Shown here piece by piece: positions 9,140-19,435 of a DNA stretch of 43,765 nt. Positions within the stretch are counted from its first letter, which is position 1. Each line of letters opens with the position of its first letter. This DNA comes from an archaeon (GTDB lineage Archaea > AGJL01 > Methanococci > Methanococcales > Methanocaldococcaceae): positions 1 to 43,765 of the forward strand of contig JAJRSC010000021.1 in assembly GCA_024278985.1 (NCBI GenBank), given 5' to 3'. A program made the translations under genes and the position numbers. The notes below the pieces were generated by a model. That model did not search any database. It saw nothing but the letters and a program-made list of their open reading frames with translations, and was not told the DNA's origin.

Positions 9140-9958
9140 TATTTTAAGAACCCCAGCATTTAAGAACCATGTATTAAAGATGTCTGCTATTAAAGCAATT
9201 ATTAAAACTGATGCAATATTTGATAAAATATCTGCTATTGGAACAAATAACTTAACTATTACTAATAAAATTAACATTGCTGTTATTGTTGTTAAAGTCA
9301 TAGTTAATCCAGTTTTAAAAGCTTCTTTATATATCTCATCAAATTCTTCATAGCTTCTTTTTAACAACTTTGTTGTTAATAAAATGTTACTATCAACAGC
9401 ATAACCAATAACCATTAATAATGCGGCTATTGTTGCTGATGAAAGTTCAATATTCAATAAAGACATTCCACCCAAGGCAATTATAATATCAGACAAGGCA
9501 CAAAAAATAATTGTTCCACTAACTACTGGATTTCTAAATACAATATATATAACAGCAGCCATAAATAAAAATGCAAATCCAACAGCTTTTAATCCCTCTT
9601 CAAAAAACTTAGAGCTTAATGTAGGTCCAACAACTTTTTCAGAGTAATTTAACTTATCTAAAGAATCAACTTTAAAAAATTCTAAGATTTTTTGCTTAAC
9701 TATATCAACATTTTCAGTTTTACATCTTATAACTATAAAATAACCATTGGCAGCTTTAAGTTCTTTTACATCAGCCAAATCTCCTAATTCTTCTTTTAAT
9801 TTTGTAATATCTACTTTTTCCTTTACTTCAATTGTTATTTCAGTACCTCCTGTTATATCTATACTCTTAGGAATTCCTTTAAATCCTATTAAAAGGATAG
9901 ATAAAATTAACAAAATTATAGGAATTATAATAGATATTTTTGGGTCTTTAATAATCAT
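9113..9958 (-). CDS. secF: Protein translocase subunit SecF
   Basis: SIDITGGTEI, VGPTL, IAALLMVIGYAVDSNILLT; 6 TM segments. Confidence 0.93.
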   Translation of the reverse strand: MIIKDPKISIIIPIILLILSILLIGFKGIPKSIDITGGTEITIEVKEKVDITKLKEELGDLADVKELKAANGYFIVIRCKTENVDIVKQKILEFFKVDSLDKLNYSEKVVGPTLSSKFFEEGLKAVGFAFLFMAAVIYIVFRNPVVSGTIIFCALSDIIIALGGMSLLNIELSSATIAALLMVIGYAVDSNILLTTKLLKRSYEEFDEIYKEAFKTGLTMTLTTITAMLILLVIVKLFVPIADILSNIASVLIIALIADIFNTWFLNAGVLKILKLRVKNF

Positions 9959-9971
9959 TTTTTCCCAGATA

Positions 9972-10253
9972 TTATTTTTTTAGATTTTCAATATACTTTC
10001 TTTGTAGGTCTTTATTATGTTCAATTAAAATTTTAAAAATTTTTAGACAGATATCTTTATCAACATTATAACATTTACAAAGTTCTTCAATACTTTTATA
10101 TTTTTCTTTTTCTCTATTTATGTCATTGATATCTAAGTTAAAGGAAAATTTTATTTTTGCAATATCTTTGGCTAGTTGATTTCTTTTAGCAATTAATTTT
10201 ATAATTTCCTCATCTATTCTATCAATTTCTTTTCTAACTTTATTTAATTCCAT
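9972..10253 (-). CDS. aroQ: Chorismate mutase (AroQ type)
   Basis: LNKVRKEIDRIDEEIIKLIAKR...DINRE...Q pattern. Confidence 0.88.
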   Translation of the reverse strand: MELNKVRKEIDRIDEEIIKLIAKRNQLAKDIAKIKFSFNLDINDINREKEKYKSIEELCKCYNVDKDICLKIFKILIEHNKDLQRKYIENLKK

Positions 10254-10271
10254 ATTTTCCCAACTAATAAA

Positions 10272-10553
10272 TTATTTAAAGAGAGAATCTATAACTTCAT
10301 TATCAATATATAATTTAAACTTTTTTGTTATATAATATCTCTTAGCCCTACCTTCCTCTAAGATTGTTTCACTTTTTACTAAATTAGCATTTTCAAGTTT
10401 TTTCATATGAGCATATAAAACAGGCCTTGATAGTTTTAAATATTTTGATAAATCATAAATTGTCATAGGTTTTTTATTAAGAATAGATAAAATTTTAATT
10501 CTTGTAGGGTTTGATAATGCATCACATATTTTACATATCTCATCCACATCCAT
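10272..10553 (-). CDS. ArsR/SmtB-like winged-helix transcriptional regulator
   Basis: ALSNPTRIKIL, LSRPVLYAHMKKLENANLV, GRAKRYY; N-terminal CxxC (CKIC). Confidence 0.85.
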   Translation of the reverse strand: MDVDEICKICDALSNPTRIKILSILNKKPMTIYDLSKYLKLSRPVLYAHMKKLENANLVKSETILEEGRAKRYYITKKFKLYIDNEVIDSLFK

Positions 10554-10557
10554 AAAC

Positions 10558-10779
10558 TCACTCTATTTCTTCCCATTTCTTCTCTAATTTTTTAACTGTT
10601 TCTTTAATTTCTTCAACATCTTTCTCTATTTTTATTAGTTTAACTTCATTTCTTGGTTTAAATATATTGTATAGAAGTAAAATAAGTATTAATATTAAAA
10701 GTATTATGATAACTATATCAGTCCAATGCCACATTACATTATTAGGAAAATAAGAATATTCATACCCTCTATAAGGCAT
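10558..10779 (-). CDS. Small single-pass membrane protein with C-terminal coiled coil
   Basis: Aromatic/Met/His N-terminus, one hydrophobic helix, IEKDVEEIKETVKKL heptads; GAGGGG RBS; 4 bp upstream of the regulator. Confidence 0.75.
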   Translation of the reverse strand: MPYRGYEYSYFPNNVMWHWTDIVIIILLILILILLLYNIFKPRNEVKLIKIEKDVEEIKETVKKLEKKWEEIE

Positions 10780-10920
10780 TTTTAACCCCTCAAAAATTTT
10801 TATTTATCAATATAAATATTTGAATAAATTATTTTAAGATATTATATCTAATAAAAGGGACACAATAATTTTAGAGATACTTTATATATTAAAATAACTT
10901 ATATTAAAATTTTTAAATAT

Positions 10921-10950
10921 AAAAATTTATATAATAGAAAAATTTATATA
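10921..10950 (+). promoter_or_regulatory. Duplicated BRE/TATA promoter element
   Basis: AAAAATTTATATA occurs at 10921-10933 and 10938-10950, upstream of the 11015 operon. Confidence 0.6.
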
Positions 10951-10965
10951 TGGGTTAATAAAATA

Positions 10966-10997
10966 TATCATATGTAGATAAAATACTACATATGTAG
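10966..10997. promoter_or_regulatory. Tandem operator-like sites
   Basis: Perfect palindrome CTACATATGTAG 10986-10997 and partial copy TATCATATGTAG 10966-10977; shared CATATGTAG repeated at 20-bp spacing over the expected start site. Confidence 0.6.
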
Positions 10998-11014
10998 GTA
11001 AAAGGTGATAAAAT

Positions 11015-11284
11015 ATGAAGAAAGTTTTGGGAATATTAGGAATAATATTTCTCCTTGTAGGTGCAGTATTTGCATTTAATAATACTACATCATTTAATAC
11101 TACAGACAATGGAGTAGTATGTCCATGCTGTGGAAATAACTGTTTATGTAACAATTATGAAAATTGTCCATGCTCAGAAAACTGTATATGCGAAGATAAT
11201 TGCACATGTTTAAATAACTGCCACCAATATTGCCACAATCATGAATTTAGACATTGTTGGGGTTTTAACAGATGTCATAGTTAG
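11015..11284 (+). CDS. Exported Cys/His-rich metallothionein-like small protein
   Basis: AAGGTGA RBS; signal peptide MKKVLG...AVFA; 15 Cys with repeated CxC and 5 His. Confidence 0.8.
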   Translation: MKKVLGILGIIFLLVGAVFAFNNTTSFNTTDNGVVCPCCGNNCLCNNYENCPCSENCICEDNCTCLNNCHQYCHNHEFRHCWGFNRCHS

Positions 11285-11307
11285 TCTTAAATACCAATTA
11301 TATTAAA

Positions 11308-11315
11308 TTTTTTTT
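11308..11315 (+). terminator. Oligo-T terminator candidate
   Basis: T8 run 24 nt after the stop of the Cys-rich gene. Confidence 0.35.
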
Positions 11316-11354
11316 CTTGTGAGTATTATTAACTACTTAAAAAGGTGATATAAA

Positions 11355-12917
11355 ATGATAAAGAAAATGATTTTATTCTTAGCATTATTAGTTCTACCCA
11401 TAGTTTCAGCAAATACAGTAGTATTAGTAAGTGATAACTTAGCAGATTATAATACTGCTTTAGATGTTGCAAATGTATTAAATGCAACTGTTATAACAAC
11501 AGAATGGGGAATATATAATGAAAGTTTAGTTAATACTATAATCTCCCTAAATCCAGATAAAGTTATAATCATTGGAGGTCCTTTAGCAGTAGTAGATAAT
11601 TATACAACAGCTTTAGAAAATGCTGGGATAAGTGTTGAAAGAATAGGGGGGCATGATAGATATCAAACCAATGCCATGGCACTTCTTCAATATAGAGAGC
11701 AATTTAGAGAAAAGTTTGGTAATAATTTATCTGCATGTGTATGTCATGGATTTGATGATATTGCTTTAAATGAATCCTTAAACTTAGTTAAAGAACATTA
11801 TATAACAGTCTTAACAAATGGTGTTAATTTAACTGTAAATGTCTCAAACTTAGGAGTTAAAAAAGTAGATGTTATTGTAAATCCTATATGTCCATTCTGT
11901 AACTATACAAAATTAATGCAAAGACTTAAAAGAGGAAATATTGTTGTTGAACAACTTGAAATTCCTCAAAATAAAATTAAATTAATGTTACAAAATAGAT
12001 TAAGAATATTAGAGAGAAGACTTATCAGATTAAAATTAATGGGTATTAATGATAGTGAATTAGAAAATAAAATTAAAGAAATTGAAGAGCTAATAAAACA
12101 AAATAAATATGAAGAAGCATACAAACTTATGATTCAATTAACAGACCAACAAAGAACTATGATAGTTTTACATTTCCATCCAATGGGTTATGGTAGAGCA
12201 ATGGGTATGAATAATGCTCCTCACATTTATCATCAAAATGCTAACAACTCTCAAATGATTAGAGGGCCAAAAGCTCCACATAGATATCAAAATGTTACCA
12301 ATTCACAAATGGGTAGAGGTAGAGTGTTTGTTGATAACAATGGAAATGTAAATGTTAGTTTAATGCATATGACTATTAATAACTTGCCAAAACAATCTAT
12401 AAGTGAAGAAGAAAAAGAGGGATTAATTGAAATGAGAGAAGAAGAAAAATTGGCAAGAGATGTTTATCTAACATTATACAATAAATGGAAATTACCAATA
12501 TTTAAAAACATTGCTGAAAGTGAACAAACACACACTGATTCCATCAAGTATCTTTTAAATAAATATAATATCTCTGACCCTGTTAAAAGTGATGAAGTTG
12601 GAAAATTCTCAAATCCAAAATATCAAGAATTGTATCAAAAATTAGTTGAGGAGGGTAATAAATCAGTTATTGATGCTTTAAAAGTTGGAGCTACTATTGA
12701 AGATTTAGATATAGCTGATTTACAATATTGGTTAAATAGAACAGACAATGAAGATATAAAACTTGTTTATGAAAACTTAATGAAAGGTTCAAGAAACCAT
12801 ATGAGAGCTTTCGTAAGTATGCTACAAAAGTATGGAGCCAATTACACTCCACAGTATATAAGTAAAGAAGAATATGAACAAATAATAAATAGCCCAATGG
12901 AAAGAGGTAGAAAATAA
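11355..12917 (+). CDS. Secreted fusion: cell-wall-binding-2-like domain + coiled coil + ferritin-like (DUF2202-type) domain
   Basis: Signal peptide; VIIIGGPLAV..RIGGHDRYQT (CWB2-like); C-terminal MREEEKLARDVY, ESEQTH, IEDLDI, GSRNH (ferritin-like); many N-x-S/T sequons. Confidence 0.8.
   Translation: MIKKMILFLALLVLPIVSANTVVLVSDNLADYNTALDVANVLNATVITTEWGIYNESLVNTIISLNPDKVIIIGGPLAVVDNYTTALENAGISVERIGGHDRYQTNAMALLQYREQFREKFGNNLSACVCHGFDDIALNESLNLVKEHYITVLTNGVNLTVNVSNLGVKKVDVIVNPICPFCNYTKLMQRLKRGNIVVEQLEIPQNKIKLMLQNRLRILERRLIRLKLMGINDSELENKIKEIEELIKQNKYEEAYKLMIQLTDQQRTMIVLHFHPMGYGRAMGMNNAPHIYHQNANNSQMIRGPKAPHRYQNVTNSQMGRGRVFVDNNGNVNVSLMHMTINNLPKQSISEEEKEGLIEMREEEKLARDVYLTLYNKWKLPIFKNIAESEQTHTDSIKYLLNKYNISDPVKSDEVGKFSNPKYQELYQKLVEEGNKSVIDALKVGATIEDLDIADLQYWLNRTDNEDIKLVYENLMKGSRNHMRAFVSMLQKYGANYTPQYISKEEYEQIINSPMERGRK
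12216..12323 (+). repeat. Imperfect tandem duplication in linker of the 520-aa protein
   Basis: APHIYHQNANNSQMIRG (from 12216) / APHRYQNVTNSQMGRG (from 12273), also similar at DNA level. Confidence 0.7.
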
Positions 12918-12930
12918 CGGTGAATGATTT

Positions 12931-13701
12931 ATGAGAAAATTTTTGGCTATCTTTTTATTTTTTTCTTTTTTAAGTTTATCTTTTGCTTGGAATGACTGTC
13001 CTTTTGGAGAAGTAAATTGTACATATCCAGGAAAATGTGGAAGATATATAGATACAAACCATAATGGTATCTGTGACCATAGTGAGCCAGCTCCAACAAC
13101 TAATAATATTAAACCAGTTGAAATAACAAATATAAATATTTCAAATCTATCAATAAAAGAATTTTGTTTAATGTATAACATTAATGTGAATATTTTTATT
13201 GATAAATTAAAGGAATTTTTAGAGAATAAACTAGGAATAGAAAATGTTATTGATATTAAGGGTAGTGAATTAAAAAAATTAACAATAAAAGAAGTATGTA
13301 AAATATATAATATCTCTCCAACTCTACTAATATCAAAATTAGGAGTTAATGTTGATGAAGACACCACATTTGAAGAATTAAAGGATAAATATGGAATAAC
13401 TCCAAAAAAAGCAAAAGAAATTATTGCTGAATGTATAAATGAAGAAAGATACTATAATAATGAATTAAATATTACTGAAAATACTAAGATAGGTTATATA
13501 ATTAAAACATATGATATAAATCCTGAAGATATAATAAACCTTGCTAAAGAATTGGGAGGAGTATACAATAATACTGAAACTTTAAATACAAATACTACAA
13601 ATACAAATAAAAATAATGAAAATATTATAGATAAAATATTATCCCTATTATTTACATATATTGATATAAAATCACTAATTCTTAAAATAATAGGAGGGTA
13701 A
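12931..13701 (+). CDS. Exported protein with 4-Cys N-terminal motif and helical repeats
   Basis: Signal peptide; CPFGEVNCTYPGKCGRYIDTNHNGICD; four T/S-I-x-E...Y-[ND G]-I repeats; T/N-rich linker; hydrophobic C-tail. Confidence 0.75.
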   Translation: MRKFLAIFLFFSFLSLSFAWNDCPFGEVNCTYPGKCGRYIDTNHNGICDHSEPAPTTNNIKPVEITNINISNLSIKEFCLMYNINVNIFIDKLKEFLENKLGIENVIDIKGSELKKLTIKEVCKIYNISPTLLISKLGVNVDEDTTFEELKDKYGITPKKAKEIIAECINEERYYNNELNITENTKIGYIIKTYDINPEDIINLAKELGGVYNNTETLNTNTTNTNKNNENIIDKILSLLFTYIDIKSLILKIIGG

Positions 13702-13708
13702 GTAATTT

Positions 13709-14407
13709 ATGGATAAAATTCAAATTTTAAGAAAAATTTCTCAAGTATTCTTTTTTATTCGTTTTGTTTTTATTAGCTCCTTATGTTTATGTTTTTATGG
13801 TGTATTAGAGCAAATATTTATTAGTGGTTCAACTGCATTAATACAAAAAATTATTATTATTGCTATTATAACATTAATTTTTGGTAGATTATTCTGTGGA
13901 TTTGCCTGCCCTTTTGGTTTTTTACAAGAATTAGCTTATAAAATAAAAAAAAGAAAAAAACTTCCTAAAATTAATAGAGAAATTCATAATAAATTAATAT
14001 ATTTAAAATATTTTGTTATGGTTGGTTTTTTATTGTTGGCTTATTACTTATCAACATATGCATTTTGTAATATCTGTCCTATTGGTTTTGTATCAAGATT
14101 ATCAGGAACTTTATTAGCTTTATTTTTAGCTATTTTATTTATAGTAATATCCTACTTTATTCCAAGGTTTTTCTGTAAATATATATGTCCATTAGGTGCA
14201 TTTTTATCTATTTTCTCAATATACCCAATATTTCAATTAAAATTAAATAACAACTGTGTTAAATGTAGATTATGTGAGTTTAAATGTCCTATGCAAATAG
14301 AAATTACTAAAAATATTACACAAAGAGAATGTATAAGATGCTTTGAATGTATGTCTGCTTGTAGAAAAGGAGGATTATCATTTAAACCATTTTTTTTTAG
14401 GAGATGA
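13709..14407 (+). CDS. Membrane 4Fe-4S binding protein (NapH/MauN/YccM-like)
   Basis: TM helices; FCGFACPFG and FCKYICPLG (CxxxCP) motifs; two C-terminal CxxCxxCxxxC motifs. Confidence 0.87.
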   Translation: MDKIQILRKISQVFFFIRFVFISSLCLCFYGVLEQIFISGSTALIQKIIIIAIITLIFGRLFCGFACPFGFLQELAYKIKKRKKLPKINREIHNKLIYLKYFVMVGFLLLAYYLSTYAFCNICPIGFVSRLSGTLLALFLAILFIVISYFIPRFFCKYICPLGAFLSIFSIYPIFQLKLNNNCVKCRLCEFKCPMQIEITKNITQRECIRCFECMSACRKGGLSFKPFFFRR

Positions 14408-14982
14408 AAAAAATGAAAATAAAAATAATTAGATTATCCCCTGGAAAATTTTTATTATTTTTTATTTTATTTATTTTAATTATGGGCCTATTATTTTTCT
14501 TATTATTTCCTCTCTTTTTATTATTGTTAATTATGGGAGTAATATTTATTATTTATCTCAAATTCAAAAAAAGATTAAAAGATATATGGTTAAACTTTAA
14601 GAAAAAAAGGATTAAAATTGAATATAAAGATAACTCAGGAAAAATAGATATTCATTTTCCAAAAAAGATACCTATTGAAGGAGAAAATGAAAATAAAAAA
14701 TATAATAATATAACTGATCCATTTGTCATTTATTTAAAAAAACTTGGTGCTAAAATTGATGAAAAAGGTAATATATATTTTAGAGGGTATAAAGTATATC
14801 CTATATTTAAAAAATCTTATCCTATAAATGAGATAATCTCATTGGACTATCCTGATGATATAGATGCAGTTGTTTTAGGTTTAAAAGGAGAACCATATGA
14901 ACCAAAGTTTTTATTTTTAATACCTAAAGAGAACTTAAAAAGAAGAATGAAATTAGATGAAATTAAAAGATTTATAATTTAA
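14404..14982 (+). CDS. Hypothetical membrane-anchored protein
   Basis: Long N-terminal hydrophobic hairpin; ATGA overlap with upstream gene. Confidence 0.7.
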   Translation: MKKMKIKIIRLSPGKFLLFFILFILIMGLLFFLLFPLFLLLLIMGVIFIIYLKFKKRLKDIWLNFKKKRIKIEYKDNSGKIDIHFPKKIPIEGENENKKYNNITDPFVIYLKKLGAKIDEKGNIYFRGYKVYPIFKKSYPINEIISLDYPDDIDAVVLGLKGEPYEPKFLFLIPKENLKRRMKLDEIKRFII

Positions 14983-16536
14983 CTACAGCTATATCTTTAA
15001 TATTAGGAATTTCTTTTAGCTTTTTTATAGCCTCTTCAGGAATTGGTTGGTCTAAAGATAAAACCATCACTGCCTCCCCACCAGGCTCTTTTCTACCTAC
15101 TTGCATACTTGCAATATTTACACCATACTCTCCTAAAATTAGCCCAACTTTTCCAACTACTCCAGGTCTGTCTATATGCTTAGTTATTGCCAAAATTCCC
15201 TCTGGAATAATATTTATTTTATATCCTTCTATTTCAGTTATAACTGGTTTATCATTAACAACTGTCCCAGCAATAGAGAATTTTTTACCATTTCTTTCTG
15301 CTATTACTTTTATATAGGTATCTTTTTCTGATGTCTTTGTTTCAATAACTTCTATTCCTCTATTTTTAGCTAATATCTCAGCATTAACTAAATTTACACC
15401 AGCCAATAATATAGGAGATAATAAACCTTTTAATAATGATTTTTTAATTAATGTTGTATCTTATTTAGATAACTCTCCAGAATAAATAATATTTATTTTC
15501 TTAACAGAACTATCTAAAACCTGCATAACTATATTTCCCAATGTCTCAGATAATATCATATATGGTTTTAACTTACCAATCTTTTCCTTTGGAAGATTTG
15601 GAAGATTTACAATATTCTCAGCTAACTCTCCAGATAATATTTTTTTATTTGCTCAGCAACTATTTTTCCAGCAGATTTTTGAGCTTCATCAGTTGATGCT
15701 CCTAAATGGGGGGTACATATTACATTATCCAACTCCAATAAAGGATTATTTTTTGGTGGTTCTTCTTCAAAAACATATAATGCAGCAGCTTTAATTTTTT
15801 TATCTTTAAGGGCCTTATATAATGCTTTTTCATCAATTAAACCTCCTCTTGCACAATTAACAATAATAGCATTTTTTTTCATTAGATTTATCTCTTTCTC
15901 TCCAATTAAATTTTTTGTTTTTGGAGTTAGAGGAACATGAAGTGTTATAATATCTGAAACTTTACATAGTTCTTCAATACTATCTAACAACTTAACTCCT
16001 ATACTCTCTGCCTTCTCTTTAGATATGTATGGGTCATAACCTACTAAGTTCATACCAAAAGCCTTAGCTCTTTTAGCAACTTGCTGACCAATTCTTCCCA
16101 ATCCAATTATTCCCAATGTTTTCCCATAAATCTCTATTCCTTTAAACCTCTTTCTATCCCATTCTCCTTTTTTAACTGAGTTGTTTGCTTGAGGTATATT
16201 TCTTGCAGCTGCTAAAATTAGTCCCATAGTAAGTTCAGCAACAGATATAGATGAAGAGTCAGGAGCATTAACTACAATAATCCCCTTTTCTGTTGCTGCT
16301 TCAACATCAATATTATCAACACCTACTCCAGCCCTTCCAATTATCTTTAATTTTTTTGCATGTTCAATAACTTCCCTATCTACCTTAGTACCACTTCTAA
16401 CTATTAAAATATCAGCATCTTTAATTTTCTCTAAAAGTTCTTCTTTACTTAAATTAGTGGCAACTTCAACATCTCCCAATTCTTTTAAAATGTTTATAGC
16501 ATCCTCATGTATTGGGTCAGTTATTAAAATCTTCAT
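14972..16536 (-). pseudogene. serA: D-3-phosphoglycerate dehydrogenase, interrupted by a homopolymer frameshift and an in-frame TAA
   Basis: [32 protein letters not shown]-terminal ACT domain. Adding one base to the T7 run at 15640-15646 and reading through TAA at 15461-15463 gives one 521-aa frame ([17 protein letters not shown]...SGELSK*DTTLIKK...LAGVNLVNA). Confidence 0.9.
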
Positions 16537-18397: not shown

Positions 18398-19435
18398 CTA
18401 AATTATTGATAATTTAATTGCCTTATAGGGGCAGGATTCATAACAACAGTAGCATTTTATACATTTTTTAGTTATTTTATAATCTTCAGTTATAGCCTTA
18501 ACTGGACACACTTTTCTACAAATCCCACATTTCTTACATTTTTTATTTATTATTTTTGGTTTATAAGATAATAAATCAAATGACAATCTAACTAAAAAAG
18601 AAGGTAATGGTAATTTAGAGGTCAAAGGTTTTTTAAACTTAACAGGTTTAATCTCTTTATAGTTGTATATTTTTCCATTCTCAATAATTATTAAATCATT
18701 AAAATTTTTTAATAATTTATTAGTTAAAATCTTCTCTGGGTTGTAGTTAATATAATATGTTGCAAAATAATCAACTGCAACTGGATTTTTTGATGCTATA
18801 ACAATTCCCAAATTTTTAGGTTTTCCAGCAGATGGACCATTTCCTTCCAATCCAACAACTCCATCCATTACTGTTAAAATAGGCTTTTGAGATAAAAATT
18901 TATAATATTCTACCAAAAATTTACAAAAATCCTCTTCTGCAGGAAAATGTTTATGAATAACCCCCTTTAATCCACCTGGAATAATACCATAAAGATTTTT
19001 AACTGCTCCGGTAAATTTTGTTAAAACATGTGTTTTAAGTTTAGGTAAATTAACAATATAATCCACATTAAAAAATGTCTTAGGGATTAAAACTTCAACA
19101 TCTTTTATAACAACTTTCTTACTTTTATCCTTCTCAAAAGGATAATATTTAACTTTAAACTTTTTACAAACCTCCTCTATTCCAGAAACTTTAAAAGCTT
19201 TTTCTGTATGATATGCTGAAGAATCAGCAACAATTATCTCATCAACCTTATCTACTAAATACTCAATAACCCACTCTAAAAATTTTGGATGGGTAGTTAC
19301 AGCTCTTTCAGGTGGAAAAGCTCCTAAAATATTAGGTTTTATTAAGACTTTACCTTCTACATTCTTTAAAATATTATCTAAAAAATTTTTATTTAAATTA
19401 TCATATGTTTTATTTCTTTCAATAAAAACCTTCAT
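18398..19435 (-). CDS. DUF362 family protein with C-terminal 2x[4Fe-4S] domain
   Basis: LIKPN, TTHP, NLPKLKTH, TGAVKNLYG, EGNGP; two CxxCxxCxxxCP. Confidence 0.85.
   Translation of the reverse strand: MKVFIERNKTYDNLNKNFLDNILKNVEGKVLIKPNILGAFPPERAVTTHPKFLEWVIEYLVDKVDEIIVADSSAYHTEKAFKVSGIEEVCKKFKVKYYPFEKDKSKKVVIKDVEVLIPKTFFNVDYIVNLPKLKTHVLTKFTGAVKNLYGIIPGGLKGVIHKHFPAEEDFCKFLVEYYKFLSQKPILTVMDGVVGLEGNGPSAGKPKNLGIVIASKNPVAVDYFATYYINYNPEKILTNKLLKNFNDLIIIENGKIYNYKEIKPVKFKKPLTSKLPLPSFLVRLSFDLLSYKPKIINKKCKKCGICRKVCPVKAITEDYKITKKCIKCYCCYESCPYKAIKLSII

Follow-up and report, generated by a model that had tools for sequence, protein, structure and literature searches.

In bacteria, the NapH-like proteins (PF12801) form a transmembrane electron-transfer apparatus in which the partner is a flavinylated FMN-binding domain, located at the N-terminus of the NapH-like protein in 1926 clusters and encoded by a neighboring gene in 539, according to the accessible part of the survey that describes them (PMC8238504). 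In the same part of that survey, the MsrQ-like (PF01794), PepSY, and DsbD proteins appear as alternative membrane partners of the flavinylated domains, and flavinylation is given as rare in the archaea (about 4% of the genomes) and under-represented in the bacteria of the candidate phyla radiation (CPR). Two other proteins, DUF4405 and FezC, bind heme b, and membrane electron transfer has been proposed for them in the available sections of a separate study (PMC11334425). The present analysis deals with a gene cluster of comparable layout, located at positions 10272–14407 of an archaeal contig (JAJRSC010000021.1, positions 1 to 43,765, the whole of which is referred to here as the window), which encodes a NapH-type membrane polyferredoxin, three secreted proteins, and a putative repressor with a small membrane partner.

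The window is AT-rich (20–33% G+C), and to judge by the names of its homologues, it comes from a Methanocaldococcus-like member of the Methanococcales. These archaea have neither cytochromes nor quinones, and we know of no electron route to the cell surface in this order. As the host is free of quinones, the electron donor cannot be a quinol. The cluster is interpreted here as a repressor-controlled operon for an extracytoplasmic electron chain, which would run from the membrane polyferredoxin through a secreted protein of the MJ0753 family to a ferritin-like DUF2202 domain, with neither flavin nor heme, an interpretation that falls a little short of an even chance of being correct. The more general conclusion, that the genes work as a single unit, co-regulated and extracytoplasmic, and connected to the membrane polyferredoxin, is supported at the level of sequence by the synteny of the genes, the fusion of two of them in other lineages, the adjacency of two in distant bacteria, and an operator that follows the dispersed components.

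The domains are all catalogued, none of them with a function, and the unit as such is absent from the literature searched. In line with the original prediction, no functional description came to light: a search that did not extend to supplementary tables found no paper on the cluster, on MJ0749–MJ0756, on the Protein Data Bank (PDB) codes of the solved homologue, or on the family PF27309.

The Gene Cluster and Its Conservation

The cluster is made up of two diverging transcription units. The leftward unit consists of gene B (10558–10779, reverse strand, 73 amino acids), which encodes a small single-pass membrane protein with one hydrophobic span, followed after 4 nucleotides (nt) by gene A (10272–10553, reverse strand, 93 amino acids), which encodes a winged-helix regulator of the ArsR/SmtB type, the putative repressor of the operon. 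The rightward unit, which begins after a spacer of 235 nt, contains four genes on the forward strand, that is, C (11015–11284, 89 amino acids), a secreted cysteine-rich peptide with a signal-peptide-like start, D (11355–12917, 520 amino acids), a secreted fusion of a CWB2-type domain with DUF2202, E (12931–13701, 256 amino acids), a secreted protein of the MJ0753 family, and F (13709–14407, 232 amino acids), the membrane polyferredoxin. The open reading frames (ORFs) of the original prediction are all present at its coordinates, as a check of the seven genes confirmed.

The conservation of this arrangement was examined in 20 loci around homologues of D, from 18 related genomes, to which 13 proteins of the window were mapped. 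In 13 of these loci, the DUF2202 part, E, and F adjoin one another, and a second paralogue of F follows in six. The remaining seven loci contain no more than a CWB2-like or a DUF2202 gene, to which the A–B pair is added in some. The co-occurrence of the genes in other genomes, on which the original prediction had staked its case, is thus borne out, and so is its picture of an extracytoplasmic unit tied to a membrane polyferredoxin, given this synteny, the fusions, and the shared operator. On these comparisons, the arrangement of the genes is far beyond chance.

A wider scan, with one genome per species, recovered 54 loci, in 48 of which the E ORF was recognized by hidden Markov models built for this family. 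Ten of the 48 belong to the Methanococcales, where F follows E in nine and the tenth runs off its contig. Six of the 38 loci from outside this order are fusions of E with F (L047 and L049–L053, from Thermococci and from metagenome-assembled genomes of Methanofastidiosum), all confirmed with Pfam, and a further representative, P0085, combines a Fer4_5 polyferredoxin with the E module and a single helical unit. The fusions have an extra membrane span between the E and F parts, which fits a location of E on the outside of the membrane and of the F N-terminus on the inside.

These 38 loci have 275 ORFs within 3 kb of E, and all except the 27 outermost, or 248 ORFs, were scanned against Pfam. Two CPR bacteria have a DUF2202 gene immediately upstream of E (2e-61 and 3.5e-67), and in a third CPR locus (L073), a weaker ferritin-like lipoprotein is encoded directly upstream, with a Ferric_reduct/FAD/NAD protein directly downstream. 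E is also fused to DUF4405 in L070, from the Caldisericota (28 bits, above the cut-off), and weakly in P0067, while L068 and L087 have DsbD-type genes next to E, and L060 has a thioredoxin gene near E. Genes of the ArsR type occur near E in four loci, and genes related to iron or oxidative stress in six, namely a VIT1–rubrerythrin protein, desulfoferrodoxin, two peroxiredoxins, and OsmC in L056, desulfoferrodoxin in L062, VIT1 in L054 and L068, ferritin and CutA1 in L069, and rubrerythrin with an EncFtn-like protein in L089.

The likeness to the bacterial flavinylated systems, as far as these are covered by the accessible part of PMC8238504, lies in the combination of a PF12801 protein, a small secreted domain, either fused or adjacent, and a variable end enzyme, and in the pairing of the E module with MsrQ-like, DsbD-like, and DUF4405 membrane modules as well. 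The difference lies in the secreted partner itself, which is here the MJ0753_N module with its three cysteines and one aspartate. In 41 related Methanococcales genomes, neither ApbE (PF02424, 0/41) nor FMN_bind (PF04205, 0/41) was detected, and the two profiles matched 8 of 14 and 4 of 14 controls, respectively. By analogy, E would fill the slot of the flavinylated domain in the bacterial NapH-like systems, and it does so in lineages in which flavinylation is rare.

The Membrane Polyferredoxin

The protein encoded by F is, as predicted, a membrane 4Fe–4S protein of the NapH/MauN-like kind. It matches Fer4_5 (PF12801) in two stretches (2.2e-24, 85.6 bits, cut-off 22) and Fer4_18 at 3.5e-7, and has about four membrane spans, two CX3CP motifs, and two CxxCxxCxxxC motifs. 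The named families remain under their cut-offs, that is, NapH/MauN (TIGR02163; 1.6e-24, 86.8 bits, cut-off 213.05), the NapH equivalog (78.7 bits, cut-off 234), NosR (69.6 bits, cut-off 1000), and CcoG (TIGR02745; 1.1e-11, 44.4 bits, cut-off 316.7), and Pfam returned no FixG_C row for F. The protein thus shares with NapH, MauN, NosR, and CcoG the two CX3CP motifs, the membrane spans, and the C-terminal ferredoxin domain with two clusters, and differs from them in these low scores, in its additional outward cysteines, and in having no nap, nos, mau, or cco genes nearby.

In an alignment of 14 sequences, the invariant cysteines are C63 and C67, C160, the quartet C183/186/189/193, and the quartet C208/211/214/218, with C156 near-invariant. 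The copy of F adjacent to E has extra cysteines, in an FCLCF motif at the end of the first span and a CxxCPIG motif after the third. These are absent from the second F paralogue, and the E–F fusions keep only the first, FCLCF-type motif, without the CxxCP loop. From the positive-inside rule, the analogy with NapH, and the extra span of the fusions, we infer a topology in which the N-terminus, both CX3CP motifs, and the ferredoxin domain would be cytoplasmic, with the extra cysteines at the outer face. An all-cysteine path across the membrane is conceivable in such a protein.

Elsewhere in the window, a 345-amino-acid ORF at 18398–19435 (reverse strand) clusters with the F family in an all-against-all BLAST, and is probably another polyferredoxin.

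The MJ0753 Family

The secreted protein encoded by E begins, at the predicted mature N-terminus, with a Cys3–Asp module (residues about 20–55, nt 12988–13095), which is followed by helical repeats and a hydrophobic or amphipathic C-terminal tail. The family PF27309, named MJ0753_N in the Atlas, is assigned to E and all of its 33 homologues in a precomputed annotation. Among 1.84 billion proteins, a profile of 15 members recovered 858 representative clusters (E≤1e-3); a word-indexed search with the N-terminal module alone had found only 16 close relatives. In the alignment of 140 members, numbered as in E, the residues C23, C36, D41, and C48 are invariant, and P24, G26, P33, G34, Y39, and D49 nearly so. 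E has seven cysteines, four of them in the N-terminal module, and only three of these four are invariant, the fourth, C30, being usually replaced by aspartate in the family. The description of E as a secreted four-cysteine repeat protein therefore stands as regards secretion, and not as regards the repeats, since the cysteine module is single, the repeats are helical units, and three cysteines are invariant.

The second half of the module reads like a 12-residue calcium loop of the EF-hand or Excalibur/TSP3 kind, with a cysteine at position 8, a likeness reflected in weak EF-hand and Excalibur rows and in a TSP3_bac neighbor at 0.76 in the Atlas. The module could then be a structural, calcium-binding domain stabilized by disulfide bonds, rather than a redox center, and this is the principal internal argument against an electron-carrying role of E. 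In AlphaFold models of E, the helical repeats score above 90 in the predicted local distance difference test (pLDDT) and the module below 50, that is, unfolded, with an input of 15 sequences. A search of solved structures with the E sequence returned a best value of E=0.44, and an Atlas search with full-length E gave no usable match.

The architecture of the wider family was surveyed in a rough census, based on regular expressions, of the 150 best representatives. One module is combined with a histidine-bearing membrane domain in 65 of these proteins and with other hydrophobic spans in 52. The remainder comprises 13 proteins with one module and no span, 13 with two to four or more modules and no span, one fusion with NapH, and six in which the expression recognized no module. 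The proteins with two to four or more tandem MJ0753_N modules and no membrane span (P0044, P0062, and 11 further representatives) are secreted, and are reminiscent of multiheme or multi-flavinylated proteins, or else of repeat proteins that bind calcium.

Four Methanobacterium loci (L057:5616-6600, L078:5624-6531, L086:687-1726, and L088:5642-6573) encode an E module fused to a membrane domain with conserved histidines, a stand-alone paralogue of which is encoded directly upstream in each case. The membrane domain is related to the DUF4405 of bacteria, which binds heme b (PMC11334425). The methanogens of this genus are not known to make cytochromes, and the conserved histidines may bind something other than heme. 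In two CPR loci, the gene upstream of the DUF2202–E pair (L076:4604-5068 and L073:4740-5180) encodes a secreted protein rich in histidine or glycine, which ends in D-x-D-x-D-G-x-C-D, like the second half of the E module.

The Secreted Ferritin-like Fusion and the Cysteine-rich Peptide

The protein encoded by D is composed, in this order, of a signal peptide, a CWB2-type domain (residues about 20–133, nt 11412–11753), a Cys4 motif with a coiled region, repeats of the type APHxYHQN, rich in histidine and tyrosine, and the ferritin-like di-metal domain DUF2202 (residues 353–513, nt 12411–12893). The last of these is matched by PF09968 over profile positions 1–161 of 162 (4.7e-61, 205.7 bits, cut-off 22), and the C-terminal 180 residues align end to end with MJ0754 (PDB 3q4n) at 4e-93. 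In 11 sequences, including those of CPR bacteria, the ligand set is E24, E50xxH53, and H142, all invariant, with E109 nearly so. The relatives in M. jannaschii that the original prediction had named as hypothetical fit, given that D resembles the PDB entry for MJ0754 and E carries the Pfam domain MJ0753_N.

The solved MJ0754 structures (PDB 3q4n, 3q4o, 3q4q, and 3q4r) share with D the DUF2202 domain and its conserved E/ExxH/E/H set, and the difference is that in D, this domain is secreted and fused to a CWB2-type anchor. The fusion is found in the window and in three other genomes (G008, G010, and G012), and elsewhere, the two parts are encoded by two genes, CWB2-like and DUF2202. The DUF2202 proteins encoded as separate genes carry a signal peptide and a lipobox. 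In one genome (G009, L027:8772-9565, reverse strand), such a gene is interrupted, with a 74-amino-acid ORF for the signal peptide and lipobox and a 185-amino-acid ORF in another frame for the domain. The alignment with the solved MJ0754 chains covers no more than the domain part, and MJ0754 may have been studied without its export signal.

The N-terminal domain of D, as a single sequence, scores 19.4 bits against Pfam CW_binding_2, under the cut-off of 24.9. A profile of 14 N-terminal halves, in turn, matches the solved CWB2 repeats of the clostridial proteins Cwp6 (3.4e-12), Cwp8 (4.9e-12), and SlpA (8.9e-12), with matches ranging to 9e-8. The clostridial proteins anchor through three tandem repeats; in D, this triple repeat was not found, only residues about 20–133 being matched, in a single stretch in most of the matches. 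The predicted fusion of a CWB2-like with a ferritin-like part is present, and the resemblance to CWB2 is that of a single domain instead of the clostridial triple repeat. The host, in addition, has an S-layer and no polysaccharide wall. A CxC(H/Y)G ... CPFC motif in D (residues about 128–182, nt 11736–11900) is kept in the same genus and not in the second family, and may be an extra metal site. In rubrerythrin, a rubredoxin-like FeCys4 center feeds a di-iron peroxidase site. The relation of the present proteins to it would be one of working principle only, in that a proposed cysteine-ligated center, in E, would feed a ferritin-like di-metal site, in DUF2202; here, the parts are separate secreted proteins, and the cysteine spacing of E is unlike that of rubredoxin. 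DUF2202 is also listed among the proteins conserved in ferrosome (fez) clusters, in the available portion of a preprint.

At the head of the rightward genes, C encodes the predicted signal-peptide protein with 15 cysteines, together with five histidines and four N-glycosylation sequons in its 89 amino acids. No metallothionein family was matched; C has no Pfam or NCBIfam family at E≤0.01, and nothing beyond a chance-level row at E≤0.1. In 13 of 16 cluster operons, the gene ahead of the CWB2-like one encodes a signal-peptide protein with a cysteine-rich stretch. These head proteins are of three sequence types, to all of which a CPC(C)G-type motif is common, and the C-type peptides vary greatly in sequence and in the number of cysteines (8 to 15) across the relatives. 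Between the genes for the cysteine-rich peptide and the CWB2 protein, there is often a tiny membrane peptide that starts with MP..(C)..Y.Y..FP, like the start of B.

The products of C, D, and E each begin with a signal-peptide-like sequence, and have 2.7–4.5 sequons per 100 amino acids (3.1 in D), versus 0–0.7 in nine other proteins of the window, a density that fits secreted archaeal glycoproteins.

The Operator and the Regulator Pair

An operator-like inverted repeat (10969–10994, unstranded), with 9-bp arms and an 8-bp spacer, ends 21 nt ahead of the start codon of C, and has the core TGTAG-N8-CTACA at 10973–10990. A TATA-like element, TTTATATAT, is located upstream of the repeat at 10943–10951, which is 17–25 nt upstream of the operator site, so that the operator would overlap the start of transcription, the classical position for a repressor. 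The core occurs once in the assembly of 1,106,849 bases, for which shuffled sequences average 0.85. The 20 loci, with 353,518 bases between them, contain seven exact copies, every one of them just upstream of the first gene of the operon. With each region scored by its best match no more than 150 nt from the first gene, the 16 cluster operons have eight sites with no mismatch, six with one, and two with two, versus none, two, and 14, respectively, in 369 other upstream regions. In the cluster operons, the site usually lies 41–59 nt from the start codon. The exact 12-mer palindrome CTACATATGTAG was considered as the shared site and rejected, since it is found in the window alone, and it is the degenerate core that is conserved.

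A stricter pattern matched 13 sites in the 41 genomes, versus two for a reversed control. Ten of the 13 are at cluster promoters, one precedes a separate cysteine-rich peptide gene (G008), one is at a remnant (G028), and one is unexplained, which means that 12 are found at components of the system or at what remains of one. In G008, the system is split over three loci (D, E–F, and the cysteine-rich peptide), with an operator before each of them. The regulator A is present in 10 of the 11 genomes that carry the strict motif, and the clusters of one genus (g4) have no motif, in genomes where A was not found. The remnant of G028 (L117:1535-2036) has the operator copy beside a truncated ORF resembling the cysteine-rich peptide and an inserted HTH/transposase-like ORF, and the two genes on its flanks are those found ahead of the cluster in L030. 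It looks like a decayed locus, and E was not found in this genome.

The product of A belongs to the ArsR/SmtB proteins, with a match to Pfam HTH_5 (PF01022, arsR family) at 2e-15 (56.8 bits, cut-off 22), and is under the cut-offs of the NCBIfam metalloregulator family HTH_metalloreg (NF033788; 49.5 bits, cut-off 55) and of the SdpR family (7.8e-10, 38.5 bits, cut-off 100). Orthologues with about 60% identity are present in 20 of the 41 related genomes. An ArsR-like regulator with a CxxC motif had been predicted, and the ArsR-type protein is indeed there, with Cys7-x-x-Cys10, yet this motif is peculiar to the window genome. It is absent from all six aligned orthologues, five of which have no cysteine at this position and one of which has a single cysteine, so that metal sensing through the CxxC is unlikely. 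The gene B, by comparison, lies directly upstream of A in all of the seven linked and ten unlinked loci (17/17), and the constant feature of A is therefore its membrane partner, rather than the CxxC, which is found only in the window protein. The product of B has one span and a strongly conserved, charged cytoplasmic helix, with 28 invariant columns among seven sequences, mainly in the C-terminal tail, and no Pfam or NCBIfam family above the cut-off.

The closest parallels to this pair are the ArsR/SmtB metalloregulators and the SdpR–SdpI system, which it resembles in having a small HTH_5 protein near a palindromic promoter site and a membrane protein as its constant partner. It differs from the former in that A has no conserved metal-binding residues, and from the latter in that B is a single-span protein of 73 amino acids without a known family, whereas SdpI is a multi-span membrane protein. 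On the distribution of the sites, A would bind the TGTAG-N8-CTACA operator, and B would act on A. This is not extended to autoregulation of the unlinked A–B pairs, only two of ten of which have the core upstream, with one mismatch. Scans for sigma-70 promoters and terminators, with models that are not applicable to the archaea, gave results at the level of chance.

Possible Functions of the Operon

In the proposed electron chain, F would accept electrons from donors in the cytoplasm, through its ferredoxin-type and CX3CP cysteine motifs, and deliver them to the outer face of the membrane. There, E, secreted and probably glycosylated, would probably be held beside F by its C-terminal hydrophobic tail, and its 35-residue N-terminal module would bind a redox-active metal or iron–sulfur center and act as the outside electron acceptor. 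From this center, electrons would pass to the di-metal four-helix bundle of the DUF2202 domain of D, held at the surface by the CWB2-type domain, with C as a metal or thiol partner. The terminal reaction would most likely be the reduction of peroxide or oxygen, as in rubrerythrin, or a redox cycling of iron at the surface. A would repress the operon through TGTAG-N8-CTACA, and B, as its membrane partner, would relay the signal. The direction of the electron flow, the cofactor of E, and the substrate of DUF2202 are the inferred parts of this scheme, and the evidence does not separate the removal of oxidants from the capture of metals or a redox chemistry of iron or other metals.

A number of observations weigh against the electron chain, in addition to the calcium-loop likeness of the E module. 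With the input of 140 sequences, the AlphaFold model of the module reaches a pLDDT of 74–83, still without regular secondary structure, and neither Foldseek searches with the models of full-length E and of the N-terminal module (at E≤0.001) nor a wide VIA structure search with E (at Z≥2) returned a match. D scores only 17.5 bits against Rubrerythrin (PF02915), under the cut-off of 22.8, with no stretch passing. Most of the 38 E loci from outside the Methanococcales have uninformative neighbors, and within the order, one genus (g4) keeps two CWB2-like genes, E, and F together with DUF2202 elsewhere, several genomes have DUF2202 alone (L039 and L040), and a DUF2202–E–F–F locus in G016 has no operator. 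Among the 41 genomes, some of them incomplete, A and E occur together in 17, A alone in 3, E alone in 10, and neither in 11. The known clusters of the NapH-type proteins, by analogy with NapH, face the cytoplasm. Transmembrane electron transfer by these proteins is itself only proposed in the studies cited above.

The same proteins may instead capture metals at the surface or maintain their homeostasis, with no catalytic chain, a possibility that is considered unlikely, while deserving attention. C would then be an extracellular metallothionein-like sink, binding sites for iron or for thiophilic vent metals (Cu, Zn, Cd, and Ni) would be provided by the His/Tyr repeats and DUF2202 in D and by the E module, and F, in the manner of CcoG, would reduce the metal ion itself, Cu(II) or Fe(III), so that it can be stored, imported, or exported. 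The many outward cysteine, histidine, and tyrosine motifs of C, D, E, and the N-terminus of the B-like peptides are consistent with such a role, as are the Fer4_5 and Fer4_18 pair of F with its weak match to CcoG (1.1e-11), the VIT1, ferritin, CutA1, cation-efflux, and ArsP neighbors of E in other phyla, the ferrosome listing of DUF2202 in the part of the preprint mentioned above, and the ArsR type of the regulator. However, the unit includes no metallothionein or transporter family, the regulator has no conserved metal-sensing cysteines and stays under the metalloregulator cut-off, the CcoG match is far under its own (44 vs. 317 bits), and the C-type peptides are highly variable in sequence and cysteine number, while passive binding leaves the pairing of the E module with electron-transfer membrane proteins unexplained. 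A thiol–disulfide relay is a less probable alternative still, in which F would export reducing equivalents in the manner of DsbD, through the outward CxC/CxxCP cysteines, to E, which would keep the secreted cysteines of C, the CWB2 protein, and others reduced or repaired. The outer-face cysteine pairs specific to the copy of F next to E would suit this relay, and the odd number of invariant cysteines in the E module, the DsbD-type and thioredoxin neighbors of E (L068 and L087, and L060, respectively), and the cysteine-rich secreted proteins at the head of the operon point in the same direction, but there is no thioredoxin-fold protein in the unit, the E–F fusions do without the CxxCP loop, and the relay offers no role for the di-metal DUF2202, which is linked to E in two distant lineages.

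Two further explanations are much less probable. The cluster may encode a peptide signal or toxin, with a pair similar to SdpR and SdpI, in which C would be a bioactive peptide that B senses, sequestering A, and the other genes would serve in maturation or immunity. The sub-threshold SdpR match of A (7.8e-10), its invariable pairing with a membrane protein, and the hypervariability of the C-type peptides would agree with this, but B is a single-span protein of 73 amino acids, unlike the multi-span SdpI, the unit has no peptidase, ABC exporter, or radical-SAM maturase, and the E–F and DUF2202–E links occur in lineages where no C-type peptide was seen. That there is no functional unit at all, and that the surface and membrane genes are neighbors with no relation to one another, is hardly credible, and is disfavored by the data. 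The left and right flanks do differ among the genomes, some components are dispersed in certain genomes, and gene G, downstream, overlaps F by 4 nt yet travels with a dehydrogenase gene elsewhere, but the synteny in 13 of the 20 loci, the fusions, and the operator shared by the dispersed components argue against a chance association.

Neighboring Genes

The left flank of the cluster consists of genes for chorismate mutase and SecF, and the right flank, of the membrane protein gene G (14404–14982, forward strand, 192 amino acids, no family) and a gene for phosphoglycerate dehydrogenase. The start of G overlaps the stop of F by 4 nt, and G was considered as a member of the cluster and rejected, given that its sole other match (L028) is beside a dehydrogenase gene, away from the cluster. 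In the window, G may be read through from the operon by an accident of position. The serA-like phosphoglycerate dehydrogenase gene (14972–16536, reverse strand) is split into ORFs of 304 and 144 amino acids by a frameshift and an in-frame stop, while its orthologue in L028 is a single ORF of 524 amino acids, and the split reflects either decay to a pseudogene or an error in the assembly of this genome, which has 30 contigs. A scan of 9900–15700 against Rfam gave zero matches, and a query for RNA runs over the 4.7-kb stretch listed none.

Implications for Methanogen Surface Biology

The operator, together with the ArsR-type protein and its small membrane partner, defines a compact archaeal regulon. 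If the proposed electron chain from F through E to DUF2202 is true, the cluster would extend the known modules of extracytosolic electron transfer by a new one, with an outside partner that depends on neither flavin nor heme, and would provide a function for the solved but unexplained MJ0754 and for MJ0753_N, a family of at least 858 sequence clusters. In a broader and distinctly doubtful extension of this idea, MJ0753_N would be a new extracytoplasmic redox cofactor domain, with a Cys3–Asp metal or iron–sulfur center at the mature N-terminus of secreted proteins, which might replace the c-type cytochromes or the flavinylated domains in heme-poor anaerobes without flavinylation, such as the cytochrome-free methanogens, the Methanofastidiosa, the Thermococci, and the CPR bacteria. 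It would plug into membrane modules of the NapH, DUF4405, and NOX/MsrQ types, the proteins with three to four copies would be the counterpart of multiheme or multi-flavinylated wires, and the Methanococcales would have a regulated electron outlet at their surface. The electron chain, if true, would also offer hypotheses for the way in which strict anaerobes may protect their surface, or handle iron, at oxic–anoxic interfaces.

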